Sequence record: OR880646.1
DNA: 64,000 nt
Reading direction: 5' to 3' (one strand)
Source: Escherichia phage ECP2301
The notes beneath the pieces were generated by a model. That model was not told the DNA's origin. It saw only the letters and a list, made by a program, of their open reading frames with translations, and made no database searches. The translations under genes and the position numbers were made by a program. How positions within the stretch are numbered: position 1 is the stretch's first letter; each line of letters starts with the position of its first letter. This document shows positions 1,847 through 7,328 of this stretch, piece after piece.

Positions 1847-2110
1847 TTATTTCATATTATTGAAATATTCTTCTGCGATTTCGTCGTTATCGTGGTAAAC
1901 TTTAGAAGACAGTTTAACATAACCTTCAGCAGCGAACATGTTAATCACAACCTTTACAGTATACCACTGACCATCTTCATTACCCATTACTGCGTAAGTT
2001 TCAAACATCGGATGGTCAGGACCGATAACTTTAATATCATTCACTGTACGACCGAAATCTTCTGAAACACATTTCATAAAGAAGTTGAACAGTTCGCCGT
2101 AATTATCCAT
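1847..2110 (-). CDS. hypothetical protein (about 87 aa; track ORF trimmed to internal ATG)
   Basis: Track ORF begins with TTG at 2230, but an early-type promoter (-35 at 2177-2183, -10 at 2154-2159) lies inside that extension; first ATG at 2110 has a GGAGA ribosome-binding site. Confidence 0.4.
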   Translation of the reverse strand: MDNYGELFNFFMKCVSEDFGRTVNDIKVIGPDHPMFETYAVMGNEDGQWYTVKVVINMFAAEGYVKLSSKVYHDNDEIAEEYFNNMK

Positions 2111-2183: not shown

Positions 2184-2339
2184 CGTTTTGTGAAAAAATT
2201 TTTAGGGAATTCTGGGGCAGGGAGGGGCAATTAAAAGGTAGGATAATATATTATAAAGGGTATAAACTAAATGATGCCTAGAGAGGCCCAGAAAGGCCTA
2301 GATGCCAAAAAGCCCTATCATTTAGATAGGGATTTAAAA

Positions 2340-2903
2340 TTATTTATCTAGTTTAGTTATTATAGCTTCTGCAGCAGCTTTTAGCTTAGATGCGGTGTTA
2401 ATACGATTTTTAATTTCAGTATACGCATCGCCAAGAACATCAAGGCTATCAGAATAAACACTTACACTATTGCGTTCGCTATTTGAAATAGAACCTTTAG
2501 TTTTGCGGTCAAAATCGGTGTACACGTCTTGAAGATCGCGGGCTGCCTTCTTTGCATCATCCAATGCATCAAGAGCTTTATTCAAAGCATTAACGTATTT
2601 TTTAGTGTCGAACATATTCTTAGAAATTTTAACAGGTGCGCGTTCAGGAGTAGCTAACACAGATTTAGGAACCTGAGCGCCAGATGCCAATTTCTTAGAA
2701 ATTTTGAAAAATGCTTTATTGAATTTATTTTCTTGACTCATTGTAAAAGAACTATTATCGATGTTGTACATTTCAATAGCTTTAGCTTTCCACTTAAGAA
2801 AATCGCCGCGGTCTTTTGGGTCCAATTGGAAGAATACTTTAGTAAGATCTGCTTCAGATGGTAATTTTGCTGCTTCGGTTAAAAATTCGGCATAGGTTTT
2901 CAT
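2340..2903 (-). CDS. internal protein, IPIII-like, with N-terminal capsid targeting sequence (187 aa)
   Basis: N-terminus MKTYAEFLTEA matches the T4 internal-protein capsid-targeting sequence with an L-x-E prohead-protease site; length close to T4 IPIII. Confidence 0.6.
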   Translation of the reverse strand: MKTYAEFLTEAAKLPSEADLTKVFFQLDPKDRGDFLKWKAKAIEMYNIDNSSFTMSQENKFNKAFFKISKKLASGAQVPKSVLATPERAPVKISKNMFDTKKYVNALNKALDALDDAKKAARDLQDVYTDFDRKTKGSISNSERNSVSVYSDSLDVLGDAYTEIKNRINTASKLKAAAEAIITKLDK

Positions 2904-2983
2904 TTAAAATCCTTGAAATAATTTATCGGTTGGTTATTAATTATTTATTACTTTGTTACTATCCGTAGCAGCATTCTCTATGT

Positions 2984-3011
2984 GATTCAAACTAAAAAGC
3001 CCCGACCGAAA
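2984..3011 (-). terminator. intrinsic terminator hairpin plus U5 (downstream of 157-aa gene)
   Basis: Minus-strand RNA: GCCCCAACC-UUUC-GGUCGGGGC followed by UUUUU. Confidence 0.65.
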
Positions 3012-3028
3012 GGTTGGGGCTAAGAATG

Positions 3029-3502
3029 TTATTTGATTTGTTTAGCAGACCAAATGCGGTCTTTAATAATTTTTTGGATGTCTTCAACATACTCAAGAGA
3101 GTGAACATGTGGATTATCTTTGAAACTATAAGCACGGGCTAACTTTTGGCCTTCGGTTTTGATTACTAAAAGCTCTTTAAGGATAGCTTCATATTTAGCG
3201 ATAATTCCTTTAACGATATTTTTTTCTTGTGCCGCTTTAGGATCTGCTTTAGGAGCAGGTTTACCCGAAGGCTTTGCAAAAGCAGCGCCAGTAGCAACTA
3301 AACTTTTCCAGGCCATACTAACTGCATTTCCCGTAAATCCTTCTGCTTTCATGTCGCGAGCAAATTGGAATCGTGATTCGTCAGAAGCATCTTTATAAGA
3401 ATATTTACCCGCTGCAATGGCTGCTTTTGCGACAGCTTGAATTTCGGTGCTAGATGCTTCATTTAACACCGCTTCATTTAAAAATTGAGCATATGATTTC
3501 AT
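3029..3502 (-). CDS. internal-protein-like, capsid-targeted protein (157 aa)
   Basis: N-terminus MKSYAQFLNEA (capsid-targeting-like, L-x-E site); TATAAATA late promoter upstream at 3543-3550; flanked by mirrored terminator hairpins. Confidence 0.55.
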   Translation of the reverse strand: MKSYAQFLNEAVLNEASSTEIQAVAKAAIAAGKYSYKDASDESRFQFARDMKAEGFTGNAVSMAWKSLVATGAAFAKPSGKPAPKADPKAAQEKNIVKGIIAKYEAILKELLVIKTEGQKLARAYSFKDNPHVHSLEYVEDIQKIIKDRIWSAKQIK

Positions 3503-3542
3503 CTTATTTCCTGTTTTAATTCGTGGATTTAATATACTACTA

Positions 3543-3550
3543 TATTTATA
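3543..3550 (-). promoter_or_regulatory. T4 late promoter TATAAATA
   Basis: Revcomp of 3543-3550 is TATAAATA; about 40 nt upstream of the 157-aa capsid-targeted protein gene. Confidence 0.6.
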
Positions 3551-3553
3551 CTA

Positions 3554-3580
3554 AAAAGCCCCAACCTTTCGGTCGGGGCT
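3554..3580 (-). terminator. intrinsic terminator hairpin plus U5 (upstream of 157-aa gene; mirror of 2984-3011)
   Basis: Minus-strand RNA: GCCCCGACC-GAAA-GGUUGGGGC followed by UUUUU; same flanks as 2984-3011 with inverted core. Confidence 0.65.
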
Positions 3581-3585
3581 AAGCC

Positions 3586-3891
3586 TTGCGGCAACCTTGT
3601 CGGGGTTCCACCTGCTAAGGCAAGTGTTTGTACGAAACGCCGGGATTCGAACCCGGTTATTAAGCAGTTGACGCTACTCAATATTTTTAAAAGGCCATAT
3701 CTCGACCATATCCGAACGTTCCGTCAAAAACGCTACTCGGCTTACGGCAAAGATATTTCCTCGAATCGATAATTCGGTGCGCCGTTTCTGCTGTGATGTA
3801 AGAGGGAATCAACAAATCATAAAGATTTATTAACACAATTCCTTACCCAGGGAACATCAGTCCGACGACTTACCGGTAGCGACCCGGTTTC
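3586..3891 (-). ncRNA. candidate stable RNA(s) with tRNA-like T-arm and acceptor stem (compare T4 rnaC/rnaD)
   Basis: ORF-free about 300 nt next to the tRNA cluster; perfect T-arm CCGGG-TTCGAAT-CCCGG (revcomp of 3640-3656) followed by CGTTTCG, with partner AGAAACG near 3785; no canonical anticodon arm. Confidence 0.3.
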
Positions 3892-4242
3892 TTAATATTC
3901 TTTTAAAGCATCAATCTGTTCACGACGTTTACGCCATAAATCAATTACTTCATACGCAGATTCAGCATTTCGAATTGGACGGCATTTATATAAAGACTTG
4001 TGATTTTGATATTGCGTAGATAATGGAATTTTATCTAAAAGGTCTTTACGTTCAAAGTATTCGTAACCATCTAAGCCAAATGAACGATTTTTGAGAAATT
4101 GCCAATGACCATATTCGTTTTCGACATAAACATAATCTGCGTGCTGATAAAGCAAATTAATTACACGTTCAGAAATAACAGTGTCATTATGATTAAAATA
4201 GAATGTTAAATCATGAACTACTAAATAAACATTACCTTTCAT
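3892..4242 (-). CDS. hypothetical protein (116 aa)
   Basis: ATG at 4242 with GAGGA ribosome-binding site; lies between tRNA-Arg and the stable-RNA candidate. Confidence 0.45.
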   Translation of the reverse strand: MKGNVYLVVHDLTFYFNHNDTVISERVINLLYQHADYVYVENEYGHWQFLKNRSFGLDGYEYFERKDLLDKIPLSTQYQNHKSLYKCRPIRNAESAYEVIDLWRKRREQIDALKEY

Positions 4243-4258
4243 ATTTTCCTCACTTAAT

Positions 4259-4334
4259 TGGTCGAGGCAGTAGGGATCGAACCTACGACCTAGGACTTAG
4301 AAGGTCCTTGCTCTTCCTTCTGAGCTATGCCCCG
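4259..4334 (-). tRNA. tRNA-Arg (anticodon TCT)
   Basis: Manual fold: acceptor CGGGGCA/TGCCTCG, T-arm GTAGG-TTCGATC-CCTAC, anticodon loop TTCTAAG, CCA encoded. Confidence 0.75.
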
Positions 4335-4338
4335 TAAT

Positions 4339-4414
4339 TGGGGTGACCGATGGGAGTCGAACCCATGACTACGAGAATCACAATCTCGAGTTCTACCAAC
4401 TGAACTACGGCCAC
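4339..4414 (-). tRNA. tRNA-His (anticodon GTG)
   Basis: Manual fold: acceptor GTGGCCG/CGGTCAC, D-arm GTTC/GAAC, anticodon stem CGAGA/TCTCG with loop TTGTGAT, T-arm ATGGG-TTCGACT-CCCAT, CCA encoded. Confidence 0.65.
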
Positions 4415-4528
4415 ATTAATACCTACTCCAACAATCAAGATGTCTTCACACGAAATTAAGAGAAGAGTGATCAGTTCAACCCCTATAATCGCGTCAAGTA
4501 GATATTAATGTGACAGTTGTCACAAATT

Positions 4529-4603
4529 TGGCGGACGTGATAGGATTCGAACCTATAACCAATCGCTTAACAGGCGATCGCTCTGCCATTGAGCTACACA
4601 TCC
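4529..4603 (-). tRNA. tRNA-Asn (anticodon GTT)
   Basis: Manual fold: acceptor GGATGTG/CACGTCC, anticodon stem ATCGC/GCGAT with loop CTGTTAA, T-arm ATAGG-TTCGAAT-CCTAT, CCA encoded. Confidence 0.65.
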
Positions 4604-4607
4604 AAAT

Positions 4608-4694
4608 TGGTGGGGAGTGGTGGAGTCGAACCACCCGAGTCGCAATGACAATGGATTTACAGTCCACACCGCTACCTATACGGGATAACTCCCC
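4608..4694 (-). tRNA. tRNA-Tyr (anticodon GTA), long variable arm
   Basis: Manual fold: acceptor GGGGAGT/ACTCCCC perfect, anticodon loop CTGTAAA, long variable arm, T-arm GGTGG-TTCGACT-CCACC, CCA encoded; D-arm imperfect. Confidence 0.6.
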
Positions 4695-4703
4695 AAATTA
4701 ATT

Positions 4704-4778
4704 TGGTGGCCCTGGGTGGAATTGAACCACCATCTGGCGATTATGAGTCGCTTGCTTGAACCTTCCAGCTACAGGGCC
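4704..4778 (-). tRNA. tRNA with CAT anticodon (Met, or Ile if C34 is modified to lysidine as in the T4 tRNA-Ile position)
   Basis: Manual fold: acceptor GGCCCTG/CAGGGCC, anticodon loop CTCATAA, T-arm GGTGG-TTCAATT-CCACC, CCA encoded; same position as tRNA-Ile in the T4 cluster. Confidence 0.65.
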
Positions 4779-4779
4779 T

Positions 4780-4855
4780 TGGTGCTGATTGACGGAATTG
4801 AACCGCCGACCTTCTCATTACAAGTGAGTTGCTCTACCTACTGAGCTAAATCAGC
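4780..4855 (-). tRNA. tRNA-Thr (anticodon TGT)
   Basis: Manual fold: acceptor GCTGATT/AATCAGC, D-arm GCTC/GAGC, anticodon loop CTTGTAA, T-loop TTCAATT, CCA encoded. Confidence 0.75.
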
Positions 4856-4860
4856 AAAAC

Positions 4861-4950
4861 TGGCGGAGGCGATAGGATTTGAACCTATGAGTCGCCGGAG
4901 CGACTGCCGGTTTTCAAGACCGGTGCATTAAACCACTCTGCCACGCCTCC
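4861..4950 (-). tRNA. tRNA-Ser (anticodon TGA), long variable arm
   Basis: Manual fold: acceptor GGAGGCG/CGCCTCC, anticodon stem CCGGT/ACCGG with loop CTTGAAA, long variable arm, T-arm ATAGG-TTCAAAT-CCTAT. Confidence 0.75.
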
Positions 4951-4952
4951 AG

Positions 4953-5026
4953 TCTCCATACAAGGATTTGAACCTTGGACCTCCTGATCCCAAATCAGGC
5001 GCTCTACCAAACTGAGCTACACGGAG
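4953..5026 (-). tRNA. tRNA-Pro (anticodon TGG), CCA not encoded
   Basis: Manual fold: D-arm GCTC/GAGC, anticodon stem CCTGA/TCAGG with loop TTTGGGA, T-arm CAAGG-TTCAAAT-CCTTG; 3-prime end abuts tRNA-Ser. Confidence 0.7.
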
Positions 5027-5036
5027 TAAATTAAAT

Positions 5037-5110
<74 letters not shown>

Positions 5111-5115
5111 AAATT

Positions 5116-5202
5116 TGGTGCGAGAAGTGGGACTCGAACCCACAAGGAAATCATTCCGCAGCATTTTAAGTGCTGTGCCTTTACCAATTTGGCCATTCTC
5201 GC
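5116..5202 (-). tRNA. tRNA-Leu (anticodon TAA), long variable arm
   Basis: Manual fold: acceptor GCGAGAA/TTCTCGC, anticodon stem CAGCA/TGCTG with loop CTTAAAA, long variable arm, T-arm GTGGG-TTCGAGT-CCCAC, CCA encoded. Confidence 0.75.
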
Positions 5203-5203
5203 G

Positions 5204-5276
5204 CTGGGAATAAAGGACTCGAACCTTTGCATCCTGGAATCAAAATCCAGTGCCTTACCAACTTGGCTAATTCCCA
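5204..5276 (-). tRNA. tRNA-Gln (anticodon TTG), CCA not encoded
   Basis: Manual fold: acceptor TGGGAAT/ATTCCCA, anticodon stem CTGGA/TCCAG with loop TTTTGAT, T-arm AAAGG-TTCGAGT-CCTTT. Confidence 0.75.
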
Positions 5277-5663: not shown

Positions 5664-6044
5664 TCAACCTTCATCAACAATAGTATGCGTATTGGCATTT
5701 ACAATTTGCCACCAATCAAAGCGATTAGAACCATAATCTGGTTTGTTTTCATTTTCTTTGATAATGTCACGGAGTTCATCTTCAGTGGCGGCTTTCGCGA
5801 TTAAATCAGCATATCCACCACGAGGATAATAATTATCACCTGCAAAAAGTAAAAAGTTTGGTTTAATGTTATTGAACTCTTCAAGAGTAATAACTTTTCC
5901 TGACGGTTGAACAATCTCTACATATTTATATCCCAATTTTTGAGCAGCATCTACTGCTTCAAGCAAAGTATCATGAGCCCATCCAATTTGACAACCTGGC
6001 TTTTCAGATGGATTAGCCTGATAATCCGCATACACTTTGTACAT
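5664..6044 (-). CDS. hypothetical protein (about 126 aa)
   Basis: Track ORF starts with TTG at 6083; ATG at 6044 preceded by AAGGTGA ribosome-binding site. Confidence 0.45.
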   Translation of the reverse strand: MYKVYADYQANPSEKPGCQIGWAHDTLLEAVDAAQKLGYKYVEIVQPSGKVITLEEFNNIKPNFLLFAGDNYYPRGGYADLIAKAATEDELRDIIKENENKPDYGSNRFDWWQIVNANTHTIVDEG

Positions 6045-6045
6045 T

Positions 6046-6231
6046 CTATTCACCTTTAGAAATTTTATCCATAACGATAGCAATTAAACCAATTAAAAAT
6101 GCTACTACAAGTGAAAAAACATTTTCTGCTGTAGTCAATAATCCACATATAAATCCAACAAACATTGAAAAACTAAAAGCAGAAGCAGAAATTGCAATAG
6201 CAACATTTCGAATTAATTCACAACGTTTCAT
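6046..6231 (-). CDS. small hydrophobic (membrane) protein, 61 aa
   Basis: ATG at 6231 with AGGAGA ribosome-binding site; two hydrophobic stretches; early-type promoter at 6260-6289. Confidence 0.5.
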   Translation of the reverse strand: MKRCELIRNVAIAISASAFSFSMFVGFICGLLTTAENVFSLVVAFLIGLIAIVMDKISKGE

Positions 6232-6259
6232 TTTATTCTCCTCAGTAGTTGATAGGGTA

Positions 6260-6289
6260 ATAGTATCACAACTAAAACCCTATGTAAAC
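6260..6289 (-). promoter_or_regulatory. T4 early-type promoter (GTTTACA-N17-TACTAT)
   Basis: -35 at 6283-6289, -10 at 6260-6265; shares a 30-nt identical block with the promoter at 6590-6619. Confidence 0.65.
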
Positions 6290-6301
6290 AACTTTGTGAA
6301 A

Positions 6302-6559
6302 TTATTTTAAATCTTCTAATCGTTTCTTCATCTTAGAACCGTTCTTAGCGATTTCGCCTGCATCTGAGCATAATGCTAAAAGTGCTTTAACTTTAGTTTG
6401 GTCTCCTTTAAAAGATGAAGGATCGACTGCAGCAGCAAGTTCTTTAATACGAGAGAAAAGACGCTCAGCTTCAGCTAAAGCCATTCCAAGCTTTACTTCC
6501 ATACCGTGGGAAGATTCAGTGATAGTAGTTTTTGTAGCAAACTCTTTGAAAGTTTTCAT
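6302..6559 (-). CDS. small protein with internal-protein-like N-terminus (85 aa)
   Basis: N-terminus MKTFKEFATKTTITE resembles a capsid-targeting sequence with an I-x-E site; ATG at 6559 with AGGAAA; driven by early-type promoter 6590-6619. Confidence 0.5.
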   Translation of the reverse strand: MKTFKEFATKTTITESSHGMEVKLGMALAEAERLFSRIKELAAAVDPSSFKGDQTKVKALLALCSDAGEIAKNGSKMKKRLEDLK

Positions 6560-6589
6560 TTTATTTTCCTAATTAATTTTGATGAGATA

Positions 6590-6619
6590 ATAGTATCACT
6601 ACCTCATCAGCATGTAAAC
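6590..6619 (-). promoter_or_regulatory. T4 early-type promoter (GTTTACA-N17-TACTAT)
   Basis: -35 at 6613-6619, -10 at 6590-6595. Confidence 0.65.
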
Positions 6620-6631
6620 AACTTTGTGAAA

Positions 6632-7328
<697 letters not shown>

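Follow-up and report, generated by a model that had tools for sequence, protein, structure and literature searches.

The internal protein (IP) genes of T4-type phages are among the closest described counterparts of the locus analyzed here. Capsid-targeting sequences send proteins into the scaffold core, the prohead protease gp21 cleaves after L/I-x-E, and the internal proteins exit with the DNA (PMC3012670, PMC9391042). Such a sequence is reportedly enough to bring foreign proteins into T4 heads (Mullaney & Black 1996, as cited in PMC9391042). In T4, each of Ip1, Ip2 and Ip3 blocks its own GmrSD variant, with no cross-protection (PMC12373910), and ECOR17 is a host on which IPIII is needed (PMC9391042). 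Type IV restriction by E. coli K-12 is countered by a protein that Bas37 encodes at its ipI locus (bioRxiv 10.1101/2025.11.20.689424). According to Repoila et al. (1994), as cited in PMC12373910, Ip4 to Ip13 are alleles of the T-even ipI locus. Here we analyze a window of Escherichia phage ECP2301 ([GenBank:OR880646.1]; the window is the whole 64-kb stretch examined), which is a Tequatrovirus, and in it a minus-strand region that encodes a protein of 157 amino acids (aa). Taking the reading as a whole, we consider it probable that this protein is a late, capsid-targeted internal protein, injected and by analogy possibly active in anti-defence, whose gene lies in an optional, repeat-bounded cassette just downstream of the tRNA/rnaC terminator.

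A second type of described system is also relevant to this locus. PeSLs (promoter-early stem-loops), described in T4-type phages (Arbiol et al. 2010, PMC2839356; Comeau et al. 2014, PMC4122927), are mobile regulatory cassettes; as terminator-plus-promoter repeats, they border indels in hyperplastic regions. The mechanism proposed for them is recombination between tandem copies, with mini-circle excision and integration (PMC2839356, PMC4122927).

The 157-aa protein and its family

The gene occupies positions 3029..3502 on the minus strand, its open reading frame (ORF) encoding 157 aa that begin MKSYAQFLNEAVLNEASS, and it is equivalent to RB32ORF132c. Residues 1-10 of the product (N-terminus MKSYAQFLNEA) constitute a capsid-targeting sequence, comparable with MKTYQEFIAE/A of T4 IPII and IPIII (the slash marks the cleavage site). 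The comparison with these two proteins bears out an earlier prediction made from the DNA letters alone (hereafter the original prediction), which had assigned a targeting signature with an L-x-E site to this ORF. The predicted gp21 site LNE/A is found at residues 8-11 and again at residues 13-16, and its E is invariant in the family alignment. A 15-nucleotide (nt) tandem duplication at 3456..3481 (minus strand; copies 3456-3466 and 3471-3481), read as LNEA-V-LNEA within MKSYAQF-LNEA-V-LNEA-S, doubles the predicted protease site; in the alignment, the shorter alleles of relatives have a single L-x-E. Only three ORFs in the 64 kb match the pattern MK[ST][YF]xxF...[LIV]xE, namely the 157-aa gene, its 187-aa neighbour and the ipI-locus gene, and all of them are at IP-type sites. 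The predicted gp21 cut after E10 and/or E15 would leave a mature protein of ~142-147 aa and ~15.5-16 kDa with an isoelectric point (pI) of 9.5-9.6. This size and pI are within the range of mature T4 IPI, IPII and IPIII (pI 9.0-9.65). Judging from these features, the 157-aa protein is likely to be packaged and processed.

A T4-type late promoter precedes the gene. The original prediction had placed it at 3543-3550, and both the motif scan and the comparison of junctions find an exact TATAAATA there, at 3550..3543 on the minus strand. The window holds 23 copies of this motif versus 9.2 expected. The promoter begins 2 nt past the U-tract of a terminator hairpin and ends 40 nt before the ATG. It straddles the cassette joint, TAT coming from the repeat unit and AAATA from the cassette. 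A promoter scan of 3500-3560 on the minus strand found no sigma-70-like site, and the exact TATAAATA points to late expression of the gene. A candidate weak late promoter, AATAAATA (2949..2942, minus strand; 7/8 consensus match), is separated from the start codon of the 187-aa gene by 38 nt. This spacing matches that at the 157-aa gene, and the box is kept in ZCEC14 and EP01, two phages that carry only the 187-aa gene.

The 157-aa protein belongs over residues 1-157 to phrog_2280 (E = 2e-60), a small Tevenvirinae-only family annotated as function unknown. At 90% identity the family forms 14 clusters (5.8 billion sequences searched), and at 50% identity it has 13 representatives (1.84 billion searched). 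Its distant members, which come from metagenomes and from T4-like phages of Klebsiella and Yersinia, share <30-40% identity, yet they start with MLKFNEFLAE, MINFSDFLNE, MKSFSSFLNE or MISFNEFV...ITE. The targeting motif is present in all full-length members, down to <30% identity. Since it is kept in distant members whose remainder has diverged, the targeting/cleavage motif is the best-conserved part of the protein. Closer to the window, the 157-aa family falls into allelic classes at 60-80% identity. In Klebsiella phage KpV477 a homologue is located directly after the tRNA cluster, so that conservation of the site extends beyond Tequatrovirus.

The profile and structure searches proposed along with the original prediction gave the phrog_2280 match and a moderate helical model, and no Pfam or informative fold match. 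The AlphaFold2 model is all-helical, with a three-helix N-domain (residues 18-71), a Pro/Lys/Ala-rich linker (76-87) and a long helical hairpin (88-154). Scans of the protein against Pfam, NCBIfam and PADLOC gave nothing above threshold, and a sequence search of PDB gave no match. Foldseek of the model versus PDB and BFVD returned self-family matches only, and BLASTP versus T4 IPII and IPIII found no similarity past the targeting sequence. PST IpIV, also 157 aa long, was considered as the same protein and rejected, the sequences being unrelated and the equal length coincidental. A separate observation concerns a chimeric ORF of 94 aa in a 2.9-kb Logan contig. Its N-terminal part is like trna.3 (compare the window ORF 5664-6083), and over its final ~30 residues it has the same sequence as the C-terminus of the 157-aa protein. 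A natural recombinant and an assembly artefact are the two candidate explanations.

The second cassette contains the 187-aa gene (2340..2903, minus strand). Its product starts with the capsid-targeting sequence MKTYAEFLTEA, with the site LTE/A, and also matches phrog_2280 (2e-53). The same profile is matched by a 202-aa Dhakavirus protein and by the Klebsiella and Yersinia phage homologues. The model of the 187-aa protein is of low confidence (pLDDT 63), its domain order being the same as in the 157-aa model, and scans against Pfam, NCBIfam and PADLOC gave only weak sub-cut-off matches, to cytochrome b562 and TraA. When the alignments of the two proteins, both of them shallow, were compared by hhalign, only the 10-residue targeting sequence aligned. 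The Dhakavirus protein aligns to both, and between the two genes the stretch made up of ribosome-binding site and first codons shows 76% identity (42 nt). Because the proteins share a PHROG, are bridged by the Dhakavirus protein and have the same predicted architecture, the two genes are probably diverged tandem paralogues.

In Dhakavirus and related phages, a membrane-like ORF of 184 aa (hydrophobic N-terminus MKLLKYLSWILLVPLDF..., phrog_2143) occupies this site beside a capsid-targeted phrog_2280 protein of 202-205 aa. There (AnYang, 1726-2280 of the fetched stretch), TATAAATA is found before each ORF and the GCCCC...GGGGC hairpin is absent.

Terminator hairpins and cassette states

By comparison with annotated T4, the gene order on the minus strand is gene 1, 57A, 57B, the ipI-locus gene (6302-6559) and trna.4 to trna.2, followed by eleven tRNAs, an extra ORF (3892-4242), rnaD, rnaC, the 157-aa gene, the 187-aa gene (2340-2903), e.8, e.7, e.6 and e.5. 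In T4, ipI adjoins 57B, ipII and ipIII are between denV and e, and the rnaC-e.8 interval contains no gene and a single hairpin, in the orientation of the proximal copy (Ta) described below. Since the T4 IP loci are elsewhere and this interval is gene-free in T4, the 157-aa gene lies outside both classical internal-protein loci. It has been inserted at the tRNA/stable-RNA operon terminator. Over the 1.4-kb region, Shigella phage ESh26 and Escherichia phage BW-1 share 99.1% identity with the window, and matches to this region occur in 690 phage records.

The gene is framed by two copies of one hairpin. The proximal terminator hairpin, Ta (3553..3583, minus strand; stem-loop 3557-3580, U-tract 3553-3557), reads AGCCCCGACCGAAAGGTTGGGGCT on the minus strand. 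It has 10 bp, fully paired and including 7 G-C pairs, a GAAA loop and U5 (-20.3 kcal/mol, z = -3.6). Ta is the terminator after rnaC and the tRNA operon and is the sole copy present in T4; in Kha5h and JB75 its position carries a terminator annotation. The distal terminator hairpin, Tb (2994..3024, minus strand; 12-nt core 3004-3015), has the Ta flanks and a core that is the exact reverse complement of the Ta core. Read on the minus strand, Tb folds with a UUUC loop and an A.C mismatch and is followed by U5 (-14.6 to -15.6 kcal/mol). In the original prediction the shared flanks and inverted core were described correctly, and the span given for the first element, 2984-3011, has to be shifted to 2994-3024. 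As it also proposed, both elements fold on the minus strand into a stem-loop followed by UUUUU, and both have the sequence form of an intrinsic terminator (a G+C-rich stem-loop directly followed by a U-run); only Ta, however, passes a simple/strict terminator scan, which Tb fails.

A repeat search reports the two hairpins as a 24-nt, 100% complementary inverted repeat (2998-3021 and 3557-3580), while the same two places align directly over 40 nt at 80% identity. The flanks ACTAAAAAGCCCC...GGGGCTAAG (ACTAAAA...AAG) are directly repeated and the 12-nt core is reverse-complemented. Allowing up to 3 mismatches, the 64 kb contains two copies of the hairpin, with 0 expected by chance. The repeat unit, present on both sides of the 157-aa gene, is ~36 nt long and consists of CTTA, the GCCCCGACCGAAAGGTTGGGGC hairpin and TTTTTGGTAT.

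For the survey of relatives, the e.8-rnaC interval was cut from 30 related genomes; record counts refer to the GenBank phage collection, and IMG/VR gave 10 related loci. Four states were found. The empty state (261 nt, one hairpin) is represented by T4, T2, RB3 and BP32, the 157-only state (~817 nt) by RB18, RB51, slur02, Kha5h, REP1, ECp13 and UFV-AREG1, the 187-only state (~940 nt) by ZCEC14 and EP01, and the two-gene state (~1495 nt) by the window, JB75, UFV13 and two IMG/VR contigs. Divergent alleles of 153/154 aa also occur at the site. The 2.8-kb region around the site is matched by 770 records; the 157-aa family is present in 511 records and the 187-aa family in 164 (counted by tblastn, all at least 85% identical), the two genes being adjacent in about 127. 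The empty junction was found in 81 records, the junction of the 157-aa gene, hairpin and e.8 in 274, and the unflipped junction of the 157-aa gene, hairpin and 187-aa gene in 124.

Every junction is at the hairpin plus U-tract. The empty site reads CTTA-hairpin-TTTTTGGTATCTAGG, the occupied site reads CTTA-hairpin-TTTTTGGTATAAATA...gene...CTTA-hairpin-TTTTTGGTATCTAGG, and the 187-only state equals the two-gene state minus exactly everything between the two hairpins. The GenBank record of RB51 describes RB32ORF132c as 'flanked by 34 bp imperfect direct repeat'. The site is a presence/absence hotspot jointed at a repeated terminator, and the sequences support cassette gain and loss at the hairpin. 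The gene and hairpins are thus not invariant among relatives; invariance would have told against the original prediction. Its proposal of a recombination cassette holds in that the gene is optional and its boundaries are exactly at the hairpins; the proposed location at the hypervariable internal-protein locus does not, that locus being 6302-6559, next to 57B.

The original prediction also had the gene boxed in by mirrored hairpins. This mirror arrangement is not supported as the cassette design: almost all relatives carry the hairpins as two direct copies, with GCCCCGACCGAAAGGTTGGGGC on the transcribed strand. The flipped distal core was found in 7 records, using a probe able to seed on the flipped core only, versus 124-133 records with an unflipped distal copy in the same flanks and two-gene context; a flipped proximal copy was found in 1 record. 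Flipped alleles are seen both in the two-gene context and in the 157-only context. Their stems differ: the window and LF73P1 have the exact reverse complement, and VIPECOOM01 and KAW1E185 have 'corrected' perfect stems, the arms in related alleles being 'corrected' to perfect pairing as GACC..GGTC or AACC..GGTT. Between the window and its closest relative (99.1% identical) there are 13 differences over 1401 positions, 8 of which are within 2993-3020. As far as these sequences go, the mirror arrangement is a rare, recent flip.

The simplest reading, drawn from general knowledge of hairpin inversion, is that the core was inverted between the hairpin's own arms, by template switching or by intramolecular recombination at the quasipalindrome. 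Small inversions are known at chloroplast hairpins, and Ripley reportedly described quasipalindrome-templated mutation in T4 rII. As in such events, a segment between short inverted arms would have been replaced by its own reverse complement. Unlike generic hairpin inversions, the inversion here concerns one copy of a repeat pair bounding a mobile gene cassette, so that repeat orientation and terminator strength change together. In the same context, the distal hairpin has -15.6 kcal/mol when flipped versus -20.4 kcal/mol when unflipped, a cost of ~4.8 kcal/mol, and this weaker hairpin on the mRNA strand is predicted to allow more read-through into the 187-aa gene. The flip also breaks the ~36-nt direct repeat into 13 + 9 nt of contiguous direct homology, and less contiguous homology is predicted to lower repeat-mediated loss of the cassette.

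Several other features surround the variable site. A third terminator hairpin, Tc (2308..2331, minus strand), reads CCCTATCTAAATGATAGGG then CTTTTT (-10.4 kcal/mol). It closes the 187-aa cassette and rejoins the e.8-proximal ...GGGCTTTTTGG(C/T)ATCTAGG, which in T4 comes after the single hairpin. The e.8 homologue (1847..2110, minus strand; phrog_2678) is the downstream neighbour fixing that side of the site. The upstream neighbour, rnaC (species 1 stable RNA), lies at approximately 3631..3769 on the minus strand, the coordinates being transferred from the T4 annotation by alignment; an Rfam search of 2200-4300 gave no significant match, Rfam having no model for rnaC or rnaD. The extra ORF at 3892-4242 (minus strand, 116 aa; phrog_3355, RB51ncORF141c, 'similar to RB69ORF150c') is located between rnaD and tRNA-Arg. 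T4 has no gene at this position, which is a further indel in the same variable stretch. The window has eleven tRNA genes at 4259-5276 (Arg, His, Asn, Tyr, Met/Ile-CAU, Thr, Ser, Pro, Gly, Leu and Gln) versus eight in T4, and unlike in T4 and PST, segB is absent between tRNA-Arg and the other tRNAs.

Proposed function and competing explanations

In the proposed mechanism, transcription would start from the TATAAATA abutting the terminator U-tract, and the MKSYAQFLNE N-terminus would direct the protein into the prohead core. There gp21 would cut after L-N-E, a site present twice, leaving in the head a basic helical protein of ~15.5 kDa to be injected with the DNA. In the cell, by analogy with T4 Ip1-3, the mature protein would most likely bind and block a first-line host nuclease; that its role is anti-defence we regard, on this analogy, as an even chance. 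Recombination between the terminator copies, or with the equivalent repeat in a co-infecting phage, would remove, add or swap the gene and so produce the empty, 157-only, 187-only and two-gene states found in nature. In the window, a template switch or arm recombination would have inverted the distal core, turning a direct repeat into a mirror pair.

A number of points weigh against this proposal. The AlphaFold2 model is only moderately confident (pLDDT 75.8, pTM 0.45, from an 8-sequence alignment), every database record of the 157-aa family is labelled 'hypothetical', and the searchable literature contains no virion proteomics or genetics for the protein or its homologues. The position between e.8 and rnaC is neither of the classical IP loci (57B-trna.4 and denV-e); a map position at a described IP locus is, on the other hand, a convention and not a mechanistic requirement. 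The junctions at the repeats show the joints and not the recombination pathway, and SegB-type homing endonucleases are close by in many relatives. Finally, the functional effects of the flip are model predictions, that of read-through being derived from folding energies only.

Some of the same observations can be read differently. The protein could be packaged and have no role in anti-defence, serving instead as a basic internal protein for DNA condensing, neutralising or ejection, or for filling the scaffold core, in which case its variability would reflect relaxed constraint and not an arms race. The pI of 9.6 of the mature protein, its Lys/Ala-rich composition and its Pro/Lys-rich linker would suit such a role, as would the dispensability of the gene, which T4 and T2 lack, and the failure to find similarity to any inhibitor. 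We nevertheless consider it unlikely. The T4 internal proteins, equally basic, were once deemed DNA-binding fillers and now all have specific GmrSD targets (PMC12373910), and strong presence/absence polymorphism together with allelic divergence (classes at 60-80% identity) is typical of counter-defence genes. It is even less likely that the N-terminal motif is a recombination hitch-hiker, that is, that another ip gene was the source from which the promoter, ribosome-binding site and first 10 codons were copied and that the protein is packaged inefficiently and acts late in the cytoplasm. The 76% identity over 42 nt at the starts of the two adjacent genes, whose remaining proteins are barely alignable, is what such copying would produce. 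Yet the motif is retained in all distant members despite <30% identity elsewhere, the cleavage site is retained and even duplicated, and the targeting sequence by itself reportedly suffices for packaging (Mullaney & Black 1996, as cited in PMC9391042).

Two further explanations concern the hairpins. A functional mirror design, either inverted repeats between which the gene segment would invert by site-specific or homologous recombination or a bidirectional pair of insulating terminators, would account for the perfect complementarity of the 24-nt arms and for the promoter being inside the bracketed segment, so that an inversion would carry promoter and gene together. It is, however, very improbable given that the copies are direct in >95% of related genomes with the cassette and that the flip is limited to the 12-nt core in a background otherwise 99.6% identical to an unflipped relative. 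In addition, no T-run follows either hairpin on the plus strand, and no recombinase is encoded nearby. The polymorphism could also come mainly from double-strand-break repair, with co-conversion, after homing-endonuclease cuts (SegB and relatives) in the adjacent tRNA region, the hairpin only marking where homology resumes. The genes for segB or other homing endonucleases lie within 1-2 kb in T4, PST, EP01, BP32, AnYang and a48, and preferential inheritance of the T4 tRNA region driven by SegB has been reported (Brok-Volchanskaya 2008, as cited in PMC4122927). As the main cause this is rather improbable in our view, since it leaves unexplained both the same ~36-nt repeat on the two sides of the 157-aa cassette and the precise repeat-to-repeat deletion that gives the 187-only from the two-gene state. 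The homing-endonuclease and repeat-recombination mechanisms are not mutually exclusive.

A broader interpretation, which joins these observations, is offered tentatively as a possibility that we do not at present favour. phrog_2280 may represent a fourth family of injected T-even internal proteins at a third IP locus, downstream of the tRNA/stable-RNA operon and conserved across Tequatrovirus, Dhakavirus, Jiaodavirus and Yersinia phage fHe-Yen9-01. Its members, the 157-aa and 187-aa paralogues included, may neutralise defences beyond those countered by Ip1-3, and the hairpin flip may act as a natural lock versus repeat-mediated cassette loss while raising read-through into the next gene.

The flanking repeat (GenBank record of RB51) and, as kinds, capsid-targeted proteins and repeat-bounded cassettes were already known, and our findings do not overturn the current understanding. 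What appears to be new is that a widespread 'hypothetical' family is seen as a probable internal protein at a third locus, together with the four-state junction map and the identification of the mirror as a rare hairpin-core inversion. The searchable literature, subscription papers aside, contains no paper on the family as internal protein, the junction map or the core inversion and none naming the 157-aa gene, RB32ORF132c or phrog_2280. In work from 2022-2025, each of the three T4 internal proteins has proved to be a specific inhibitor of its own GmrSD-type restriction enzyme, which makes unassigned capsid-targeted proteins prime candidates for anti-defence. Of the sequenced T4-like phages, ~500 have the 157-aa family, therapy candidates and members of the BASEL collection among them. 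The locus is also a clean natural case of cassette gain and loss at a duplicated terminator, with four states and exact junctions, and the core inversion, which alters repeat orientation, is useful for studying how accessory genes of T-even phages are shuffled and fixed.

Comparison with known systems

Like T4 IPI-III (Ip1-3), the 157-aa protein has an N-terminal targeting sequence, an L/I-x-E/A protease site and a small basic mature form, and it is dispensable and variably present; by analogy, injection with the DNA is expected. On sequence grounds it has every testable property of a T-even internal protein except the conventional map position. Unlike T4 IPI-III, it shows no detectable sequence or fold similarity to them past the first 10 residues, belongs to phrog_2280 (versus 4363, 7857 and 5341), has a two-domain helical architecture and is encoded at e.8/rnaC, not at denV-e or 57B-trna.4. 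Homology to a characterised GmrSD/type IV inhibitor (IPI*, Ip2 or Ip3) was not found, the PHROGs being different and PDB giving no sequence or fold match.

The upstream regions differ as well. An early-promoter-like element, GTTTAC...TA(G/T)TAT, stands upstream of both ipII and ipIII in T4 (2720-2830 and 3417-3500 of the fetched T4 stretch, minus strand). These elements lie in long palindromes, for example CCTAGAATTGTGAATATATTATCACAATTCTAGG, and are not a perfect TATAAATA. In contrast, the 157-aa gene has a canonical TATAAATA fused to a terminator. The upstream modules of the classical IP genes and of the 157-aa gene are thus different.

There is also a parallel in organization with the Ip4-Ip13 alleles (PST IpIV/IpV/IpVI and JB75 Ip5/Ip6), which are likewise unrelated small proteins with only the targeting signal in common, cassette-swapped between conserved flanks. 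Unlike the 157-aa gene, those alleles are at 57B-trna.4 or denV-e, with early-promoter-like repeats as their boundaries. In the annotations of PST and JB75, Ip genes are named at these other loci and the 157-aa family is left 'hypothetical'. In the window itself, the ipI-locus gene (6302-6559; 85 aa, MKTFKEF..., phrog_3499 'internal head protein') is framed by the two copies of a 69-nt direct repeat (83% identity; 6249-6317 and 6579-6647), which on the minus strand contains GATTTAAAATAATTTCACAAAGTTGTTTACAT-N17-TACTAT and is early-promoter-like (PeSL-like). Together with the terminator repeat, this means that both IP-type sites of the genome are bounded by repeated regulatory elements, of different kinds.

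The repeat at the 157-aa gene also resembles PeSLs, in that composite terminator-plus-promoter repeats with a repeated stem-loop flank an indel between close relatives. It differs from them in its promoter half, which is the late TATAAATA and not the early sigma-70-like TTTACW-N17-TAYWAT. Moreover, unlike the dispersed PeSL family, it is a duplicate of one specific terminator, that of the tRNA/rnaC operon, and is present in two copies in the window.

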